Sequence record: PQ850600.1
From: Escherichia phage Dewey
DNA: 40,352 nt
Reading direction: 5' to 3' (one strand)
The translations under genes and the position numbers were made by a program. Each line of letters begins with the position of its first letter. Positions within the stretch are counted from its first letter, which is position 1. The notes below the pieces were generated by a model. That model did no database searches, was not told the DNA's origin, and was given only the letters and a program-made list of their open reading frames with translations. Shown here in pieces: positions 26,672 to 27,169 of the stretch.

Positions 26672-26700
26672 GCCAAAAATAAAGGCCGACTATGCGGCCT
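26672..26700 (-). terminator. intrinsic terminator after the 156-aa gene
   Basis: minus strand AGGCCG-catagt-CGGCCT followed by TTTATTTTTGG; overlaps the stop codon. Confidence 0.5.
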
Positions 26701-27169
26701 AGTAGAATACCCAATTTTCTGTTTCTTGGTTGTGTCCAAAGTTATATTCAATATCTGGTGTTGATGTATCAATATTCTTCATCCCATCAACAAGAGTTGA
26801 TACAACAGCAAAATCTTGTTTGATTCTCATTAAATGGTATTTCTTCCGGCGCAATAAACTCTCAATGGCAAGTTTCTTCGTTGGGAATGCAAAAGATCTT
26901 TCTGCATTTTTTGCTACTTTCTTAATTGCATATCTATTTCTCCTTTGTTTCCATTCCTGTAACCACTGATTTGGTGCTGGTTTAAAATTAACAATCCAAT
27001 GCGCAGGAACCAACCATGCATAATGCTCTGTCTGATGAAAAGCTATATATTGAAGTGCGAATATTTTGATTCCATCTTCTTCAACTGTCGCCTGGAATCT
27101 CCAGAAAATAGGCATTCCATCATGTTCAGTTTCTGATTCAGGAAAAGGTACGCTCCATGATTTTGTCAT
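26699..27169 (-). CDS. hypothetical protein, AT-rich accessory gene in the ral/sieB-equivalent position
   Basis: 156 aa, Trp-rich, no recognizable motif; translationally coupled to N; lower GC than neighbours. Confidence 0.55.
   Translation of the reverse strand: MTKSWSVPFPESETEHDGMPIFWRFQATVEEDGIKIFALQYIAFHQTEHYAWLVPAHWIVNFKPAPNQWLQEWKQRRNRYAIKKVAKNAERSFAFPTKKLAIESLLRRKKYHLMRIKQDFAVVSTLVDGMKNIDTSTPDIEYNFGHNQETENWVFY

Follow-up and report, generated by a model that had tools for sequence, protein, structure and literature searches.

Organization of the locus

The window, i.e. the whole 40,352-nt stretch of DNA analysed here, comes from Escherichia phage Dewey (PQ850600.1). Judged from its sequence, the minus strand carries the canonical start of a lambdoid early-left operon, with a PL-like promoter, nutL, the antiterminator gene N and an open reading frame (ORF) of 156 aa that is the focus of this work (Table 1). 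The boxB of nutL has the sequence of lambda nutL boxB. The PL-like site was the only candidate promoter found upstream of the 156-aa gene on the minus strand; in this simple consensus scan, which weak or non-sigma-70 promoters can escape, no sigma-70-like site was detected on that strand from 27685 to 27170, and the DNA directly upstream of the gene is N coding sequence. The N stop codon is embedded in the Shine-Dalgarno sequence of the 156-aa gene (TGAGGTGAGATATG), so that only 8 nt lie between this stop and the following ATG; the two reading frames do not overlap. Such spacing would allow reinitiation after N, and translational coupling of the 156-aa gene to N is plausible on this basis.

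Table 1. Features of the early-left region of the window, listed in the direction of PL transcription
Feature	Coordinates	Strand	Details
PL-like sigma-70 promoter	27685..27713	minus	TTGACT-17-TACTAT; putative, by consensus scan
nutL	27615..27644	minus	boxA core 27644..27637; boxB GCCCTGAAGAAGGGC 27629..27615
N, lambda-type antiterminator, 108 aa	27178..27504	minus	ATG at 27504, TGA 27180..27178; Pfam N36, E 1.5e-26
Left-hand junction (linker)	27170..27231	minus	conserved; last ~50 nt of N (...TCVGRQKMKLGSKPLI*) and GAGGTG Shine-Dalgarno
156-aa protein-coding gene	26699..27169	minus	ATG start, TAG stop; HK97 gp45 / 933W L0079 family (PHROG 1636)
Intrinsic-terminator-like hairpin and U-tract	26673..26700	minus	stem-loop 26700..26683, overlaps the TAG stop; positionally analogous to lambda tL1
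527-bp segment	26172..26698	minus	present in the window and Bas106, absent from HK97 and 933W; starts with the slot hairpin
Small ORF, 94 aa	26374..26658	minus	PHROG 1273; in the 527-bp segment
Small ORF, 70 aa	26165..26377	minus	in the 527-bp segment
Two tandem terminator-like hairpins	26012..26069	minus	26069..26052 and 26031..26012

An earlier note on this DNA had described an AT-rich, Trp-rich gene after N, and all of its described elements were recovered in place. The gene has a GC content of 0.36 (GC3 0.29), whereas the window as a whole has 0.48 and N has 0.49; 7 of the 156 residues (4.5 %) are Trp. The ORF is a genuine gene under strong purifying selection. Across its 32 distinct E. 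coli alleles, 21 changes are synonymous and 4 are non-synonymous (pN/pS ~0.05), third codon positions account for 22 of the 25 polymorphic sites, and all 80 copies in IMG/VR are intact; the other five frames of the ORF hold 6-13 stops.

Other features of the window were also recorded. Past the end of cI (27839) and before PL, there is a perfect 8-bp hairpin flanked by T-runs on either side (27787..27808, both strands). Transcription of cI probably terminates at this hairpin, and 933W has an annotated 'tM' terminator at the equivalent place. On the plus strand, a 266-aa ORF located between cII and the replication genes (29260..30060) contains an HNH-like motif (CQYCG...HVDHINP...CNGGK), and HNH endonucleases are annotated in the equivalent region of the related phage Louie. 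Terminal redundancy, considered on account of two 162-aa ORFs at the window ends, was ruled out as these ORFs are unrelated. An Rfam search of the window gave no hit.

Family and distribution of the 156-aa protein

The 156-aa product corresponds exactly to protein record WP_210765316.1 and is a full-length member of PHROG 1636 (profile E 2.8e-111, residues 1-156 of 156). It shares 98 % identity with Gp45 of HK97 (AAF31125) and L0079 of 933W (AAD25424), and 98-99 % with its counterparts in H-19B, BP-4795, Min27, Stx2 phage 86 and the BASEL phage Bas106 (Bas106_0042). In E. coli lambdoid phages, the gp45/L0079-type gene always lies downstream of N, and the gene was found in 598 of 5426 complete E. 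coli genomes (11 %, about one in nine), and a single genome has up to four copies. As a gene it is not new: databases have contained its sequence from the time of the HK97 and 933W sequencing; to judge from these records, it belongs to a family long annotated and never studied.

Homologues with 55-83 % identity occur in prophages of Cronobacter, Pectobacterium, Brenneria, Rosenbergiella and Symbiopectobacterium. When 1.8 billion representative proteins were searched with a profile, 87 relatives were recovered at E<1e-3, the distant ones being 130-155 aa long, ~20-25 % identical and aligned over residues 19-140; PHROGs 13631 and 25384 (function not known) hold such distant relatives. Phages that are apparently non-temperate also carry relatives, e.g. 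Pantoea phage LIET2 (75 kb) and Erwinia phiEa2809. Candidate domain fusions among the distant hits, two long proteins of 940 and 444 aa, were rejected as repeat or low-complexity artefacts.

The relatives are annotated as 'hypothetical' or 'prophage protein' in every source. Profile searches with the 156-aa protein and 30 family members gave no match in Pfam, NCBIfam or PADLOC, and PHROGs searches with the same set returned only families without known function. The sole listing obtained for the protein in PADLOC-DB 2.0, Cas1_II, is at chance level (E 0.017, 12 bits), and a sequence-profile search of the PDB produced chance hits only. Nothing on the HK97 gp45, L0079 or PHROG 1636 protein was found in the searchable literature, and no functional evidence for the family, experimental or by homology. 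The statement of the earlier note that the protein has no recognizable family holds for Pfam, NCBIfam and PADLOC and fails for PHROG 1636, which matches over the full length (E 3e-111).

The gene as one cassette of an exchangeable slot

Both junctions of the gene, the linker on its left and the hairpin at its stop, occur in phages devoid of the 156-aa gene. The linker opens the slot and the same hairpin closes unrelated genes, from which the 156-aa gene is identified as a slot cassette. The locus is best described as a slot made of the N 3' linker, a cassette and the first leftward terminator, located on the pL transcript upstream of its first terminator; on comparison of sequences, the 156-aa gene is one of at least nine unrelated and interchangeable cassettes in this hypervariable slot of lambdoid early-left operons.

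On the left side, a segment of 34 nt (N 3' end, Shine-Dalgarno and ATG) is also found in lambdoid phages without the 156-aa gene, among them VT2-Sakai, Sf6, HK106 and lambda imm21. In the window the linker is coding, being the actual C-terminus of N, whereas in HK97, 933W and VT2-Sakai it is a non-coding scar past their own N stop. This remnant of ~50 nt from the 3' end of a lambda-type N follows a different N in HK97 (locus L001, 2974..3023), 933W (L003) and VT2-Sakai (L013), and corresponds to 27180..27231 in the window. Such remnants suggest a phage with a lambda-type N as the source of the cassettes, and recombination in the linker as their route of entry. P22-like phages are known to have mosaic joints within the 3' end of the N/24 gene (PMC8022706).

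On the right side, the hairpin (AGGCCG-CATAGT-CGGCCT) has a 6-bp stem with 5 G-C pairs and a 6-nt loop and is followed by TTTATTTTT down to ~26673; with its UUUAUUUUU, it has the form of a Rho-independent terminator. Its folding energy of -9.6 kcal/mol (z = -1.7) is modest taken alone. The 41 nt covering hairpin and tail (26700..26660) are 100 % identical in many Stx2a and Stx1a phages, mEp235 and others without the 156-aa gene, and the same GGCCGCATAGTCGGCC-TTTATTTTT hairpin overlaps or follows the stops of the 107-, 62-, 149- and 60-aa genes and of the mEp235 Nmad5 gene. By this sequence identity, the right boundary of the slot appears as one conserved intrinsic terminator in many phages. 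The minus-strand terminator that the earlier note had placed right after the gene was thus found, its hairpin (26700..26683) and U-tract overlapping the TAG. To call it the gene's own is misleading, since at least five unrelated genes have the identical hairpin behind them in this position and the terminator belongs to the slot, not to the 156-aa gene. The slot terminator resembles lambda tL1 in being a terminator-like hairpin plus U-tract, and the first on its strand after PL, nutL and N; it nevertheless has no sequence homology with the lambda region after N, and the window has an extra gene between N and the terminator.

HK97 and 933W carry the 98 % identical homologue downstream of N, as in the window, but their N is different and their terminators lie 100-150 nt further on, whereas the window has a lambda-type N and the hairpin at the stop. 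Their homology with the window runs from 27231 exactly to the stop of the 156-aa gene and resumes at 26171, so that the window and Bas106 hold an extra 527 bp (Table 1). The two tandem hairpins of the window are found in HK97 and 933W ~100-150 nt past the gp45-type gene, the first being annotated as a putative terminator in HK97. Among the E. coli IMG/VR copies with downstream sequence, the hairpin is at the stop in 10 of 77 and the HK97 arrangement (terminators 100-150 nt on) is seen in 67 of 77.

Two observations concern this downstream segment. The 94-aa ORF and an 80-aa minus-strand ORF at 25465..25707 are paralogous (40 % identical, E 9e-17) and have the motifs 'EFKGTPGxW' and 'AAPxLLEALQ' in common, which presumably recall Ead/Ea22-like C-termini. 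A perfect 10-bp inverted repeat without U-tract (GTGTATTCA...TGAATACAC, 26120..26165 on the minus strand, equivalent to L001 3515..3550) closely follows the HK97-type junction, ahead of the tandem terminators, and is conserved in HK97 and 933W.

Occupants were counted at IMG/VR loci with the linker (at least 120 loci, 111 usable among those listed). Among these usable loci, the linker is followed by a 28-aa hyper-acidic peptide in about 50, the 156-aa gene in about 31, an 83-aa gene of the Sakai orf20 type in about 13, a 107-aa gene in 5, a 149-aa gene that looks membrane-spanning from its sequence in 5, a 62-aa DUF7167 gene in 2, and genes of 60, 52 and 87 aa in 1 each. No functional assignment was found for any of these occupant types. 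The commonest occupant among the loci listed, the 28-aa peptide MEEEFEEFEEHPQDVMEQYQDYPYDYDY (PHROG 16060; e.g. L103, L180 and L192), is also aromatic-rich. In mEp235, gp37 (L012, 1188..1811) encodes a 207-aa Nmad5 protein (Pfam E 3.7e-72) and ends in the identical slot terminator; apart from this Nmad5 gene ('nucleotide modification associated domain 5'), no occupant has a domain annotation beyond a DUF.

Gene context in other phages

Three different N types precede the gp45-type gene in E. coli phages, and the surroundings vary further in other genera. In Cronobacter, the homologue lies after N and before cIII, with one terminator 22 nt before its start codon and another overlapping its stop. 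The Pectobacterium and Brenneria homologues directly precede xis-int and have a terminator just upstream. In metagenomic phages, it is either the first gene of an early operon or the last of a replication-recombination operon, and in one such phage it stands alone between opposite-strand tail genes. In the 75-kb Pantoea phage LIET2 and in a Vibrio phage, it is found among small early genes, and one cytosine methyltransferase gene adjoins it in LIET2. From these contexts, the gp45-type gene is an early-region accessory gene, often bracketed by terminators.

Since three N types precede it and it lies elsewhere far from N (e.g. beside xis-int), the gene is not functionally tied to N. A role of the 156-aa protein as an N cofactor was ruled out on the same grounds. 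The terminator upstream of the Cronobacter start codon would make the gene N-dependent there, i.e. delayed early, so that immediate-early timing would not be a constant of the family.

Properties and predicted structure of the protein

The 156-aa protein has a mass of 18.7 kDa, a pI of 9.1 and a GRAVY of -0.59, with 21 Lys+Arg against 18 Asp+Glu. Its charge is unevenly distributed: residues 73-120 sum to +13, and the ends flanking them are acidic. The highest 19-residue Kyte-Doolittle mean is 0.56, and no transmembrane segment or signal peptide was found from hydropathy and sequence properties; the protein is predicted to be soluble and basic. The residues conserved across the wide family sit in the basic part (K..K...RFAF..K..A...L..RK..Q..HLKRD).

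AlphaFold gave a confident result in 1 of 5 models from a shallow alignment, and in all five models (pLDDT >90) from 30 divergent sequences, the best reaching a pLDDT of 93.4 and a pTM of 0.80. The model comprises a three-stranded antiparallel sheet (residues 19-55), two short helices, a short strand (83-86), and a 33-residue helix (98-130) followed by an ordered C-terminal tail. No solved structure matched this predicted fold. According to the model, the gp45/L0079 family would have a phage-specific and widespread fold without a solved representative. The remote-homology search and structure prediction proposed in the earlier note delivered relatives and a confident fold, and no match to a known function or a solved structure.

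Possible roles

The earlier note had likened the position of the gene to that of lambda sieB and ral, and the 156-aa gene does sit where lambda carries them: the lambda N-to-ea10 interval (sieB, orf28, ral) and the corresponding P22 region take an equal place in the early-left operon. This interval after N holds dispensable genes for host or competitor interactions in lambda and P22 (PMC8022706). An accessory cassette in a lambdoid early-left operon is a known kind of arrangement. In the lambda record SieB is annotated on the opposite strand, whereas the 156-aa gene is co-oriented with N.

The reading that we favour, with roughly even confidence for and against, is that of a slot cassette made early together with N, whose product is a soluble cytoplasmic protein acting on the host or a host defence through its basic surface. 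Located upstream of the first terminator and with no promoter of its own detected, the gene is expected to be made with N on the immediate-early transcript: PL would drive a single message for both genes, possibly with translational reinitiation after N. As no promoter was found between the PL-like site and the gene, expression should depend on PL and be repressed by CI in a lysogen, and the gene would be silent in the repressed prophage. N-modified polymerase would read through the slot terminator as at tL1-type terminators, through which N is known to carry polymerase in lambdoid and Stx phages (PMC8065619).

The cytoplasmic soluble protein would combine an N-terminal aromatic-rich beta-sheet with a long helix bearing a conserved Lys/Arg/His cluster. 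In the weakest step of the scheme, drawn from composition and predicted structure, its basic surface (residues 73-120, +13) might, early in infection, bind a nucleic acid or an acidic protein of the host; once bound, the protein would neutralise a host defence or redirect a host function. We propose that the protein is dispensable and useful in some hosts only, and that the cassette is for this reason swapped for others. That the gene is optional and exchangeable points weakly to a role directed at the host or its defences, and away from a core function of the phage.

A function internal to the phage is rather unlikely in our view. The protein would then be a small DNA- or RNA-binding regulator tuning lysis-lysogeny, early transcription, replication or recombination. 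Phage-internal regulators exist among the accessory exo-xis genes of lambdoid phages, and the basic conserved central segment set in a beta-sheet and long-helix architecture is consistent with such activity, as is the location of the gene, in several phages, first in an early operon or beside regulatory or recombination genes. However, unrelated cassettes replace the gene, only 11 % of complete E. coli genomes have it, it is found behind differing N, CI and recombination modules, and the protein matches no known DNA-binding family or fold.

It is improbable that the gene is a moron expressed from the prophage and guarding the lysogen by superinfection exclusion or abortive defence. The concept of morons in lambdoid phages was reportedly defined by Juhala et al. 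in 2000, with HK97 gene 15 as an example. The deviating base composition, optional presence and adjacent terminator of such genes are also true of the 156-aa gene; the moron-like, accessory traits seen in the earlier note are in this respect real, as the gene is an exchanged cassette of foreign base composition and the family is usually followed, and sometimes preceded, by a terminator. Unlike morons, which lie in the late region, it belongs to the PL operon repressed by CI, and no promoter of its own was detected. The label of moron is supported by base composition (GC 0.36 vs 0.48) and by the downstream terminator, albeit one shared with unrelated cassettes, and not by a promoter, none being found from 27685 to 27170. 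Terminators flanking the gene in several relatives, the homologue standing alone between opposite-strand tail genes and the equivalent position of lambda sieB would suit lysogen protection, but with no promoter found from PL to the gene, CI should silence it. Known membrane Sie proteins have a hydrophobic segment, whereas the 156-aa protein has neither a transmembrane segment nor a signal peptide; it also has no significant PADLOC match (Cas1_II, E 0.017) and no similarity to SieB (BLASTP E = 0.23 over 14 residues). The exclusion function envisaged in the earlier note is unlikely given the lack of a hydrophobic segment (maximum mean 0.56) and the relatives in LIET2 and phiEa2809, which are apparently virulent.

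Restriction alleviation of the Ral or DNA-mimic type, a narrow sub-case of counter-defence and the second suggestion of the earlier note, is very improbable. Early co-expression with N would suit the guarding of incoming DNA, and the gene is close to the position of ral in lambda and P22 (PMC8022706). The protein nevertheless lacks similarity to lambda Ral (BLASTP E = 24, separate PHROGs), and the only methyltransferase link in the family is the single neighbouring gene in LIET2. Ocr and ArdA are acidic DNA mimics, a type that the pI of 9.1 excludes here. As it is soluble, basic and without a detected promoter of its own, the 156-aa gene product is unlikely to be a membrane exclusion protein, a prophage-expressed moron or a DNA mimic. 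Anti-restriction or counter-defence by some other mechanism would still be a candidate function. Finally, the idea of a chance ORF without function in an AT-rich spacer, in favour of which only the missing annotation speaks, is already refuted by the pN/pS and third-position bias reported above, by the coverage of at least 80 % of the gene in 593 of the 598 matching complete E. coli genomes, by homologues down to ~20 % identity and by the confident structure model.

Significance

Extended to its limit, the favoured reading of a host- or defence-directed slot cassette would make gp45/L0079 the founder of a new protein class with an unseen fold, serving counter-defence or host takeover, and the N-to-terminator interval a recombination-primed, immediate-early counter-defence island of at least nine cassettes with different targets; we regard this as unlikely. 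Without a phenotype, the 156-aa gene would be one more dispensable phage ORF. Worth recording are a confident fold with no solved match, a family extending well beyond lambdoid phages and a slot with at least nine occupants and sharp, conserved boundaries.

A protein of the gp45 type is carried by the model phage HK97 and by the clinically important Shiga-toxin phages 933W, H-19B and BP-4795. A sharply bounded and exchangeable slot on the transcript that is made first upon infection or induction is an experimentally tractable locus, and its cassettes could reveal new phage-host interaction functions, with a possible bearing on the induction or host range of Stx phages.
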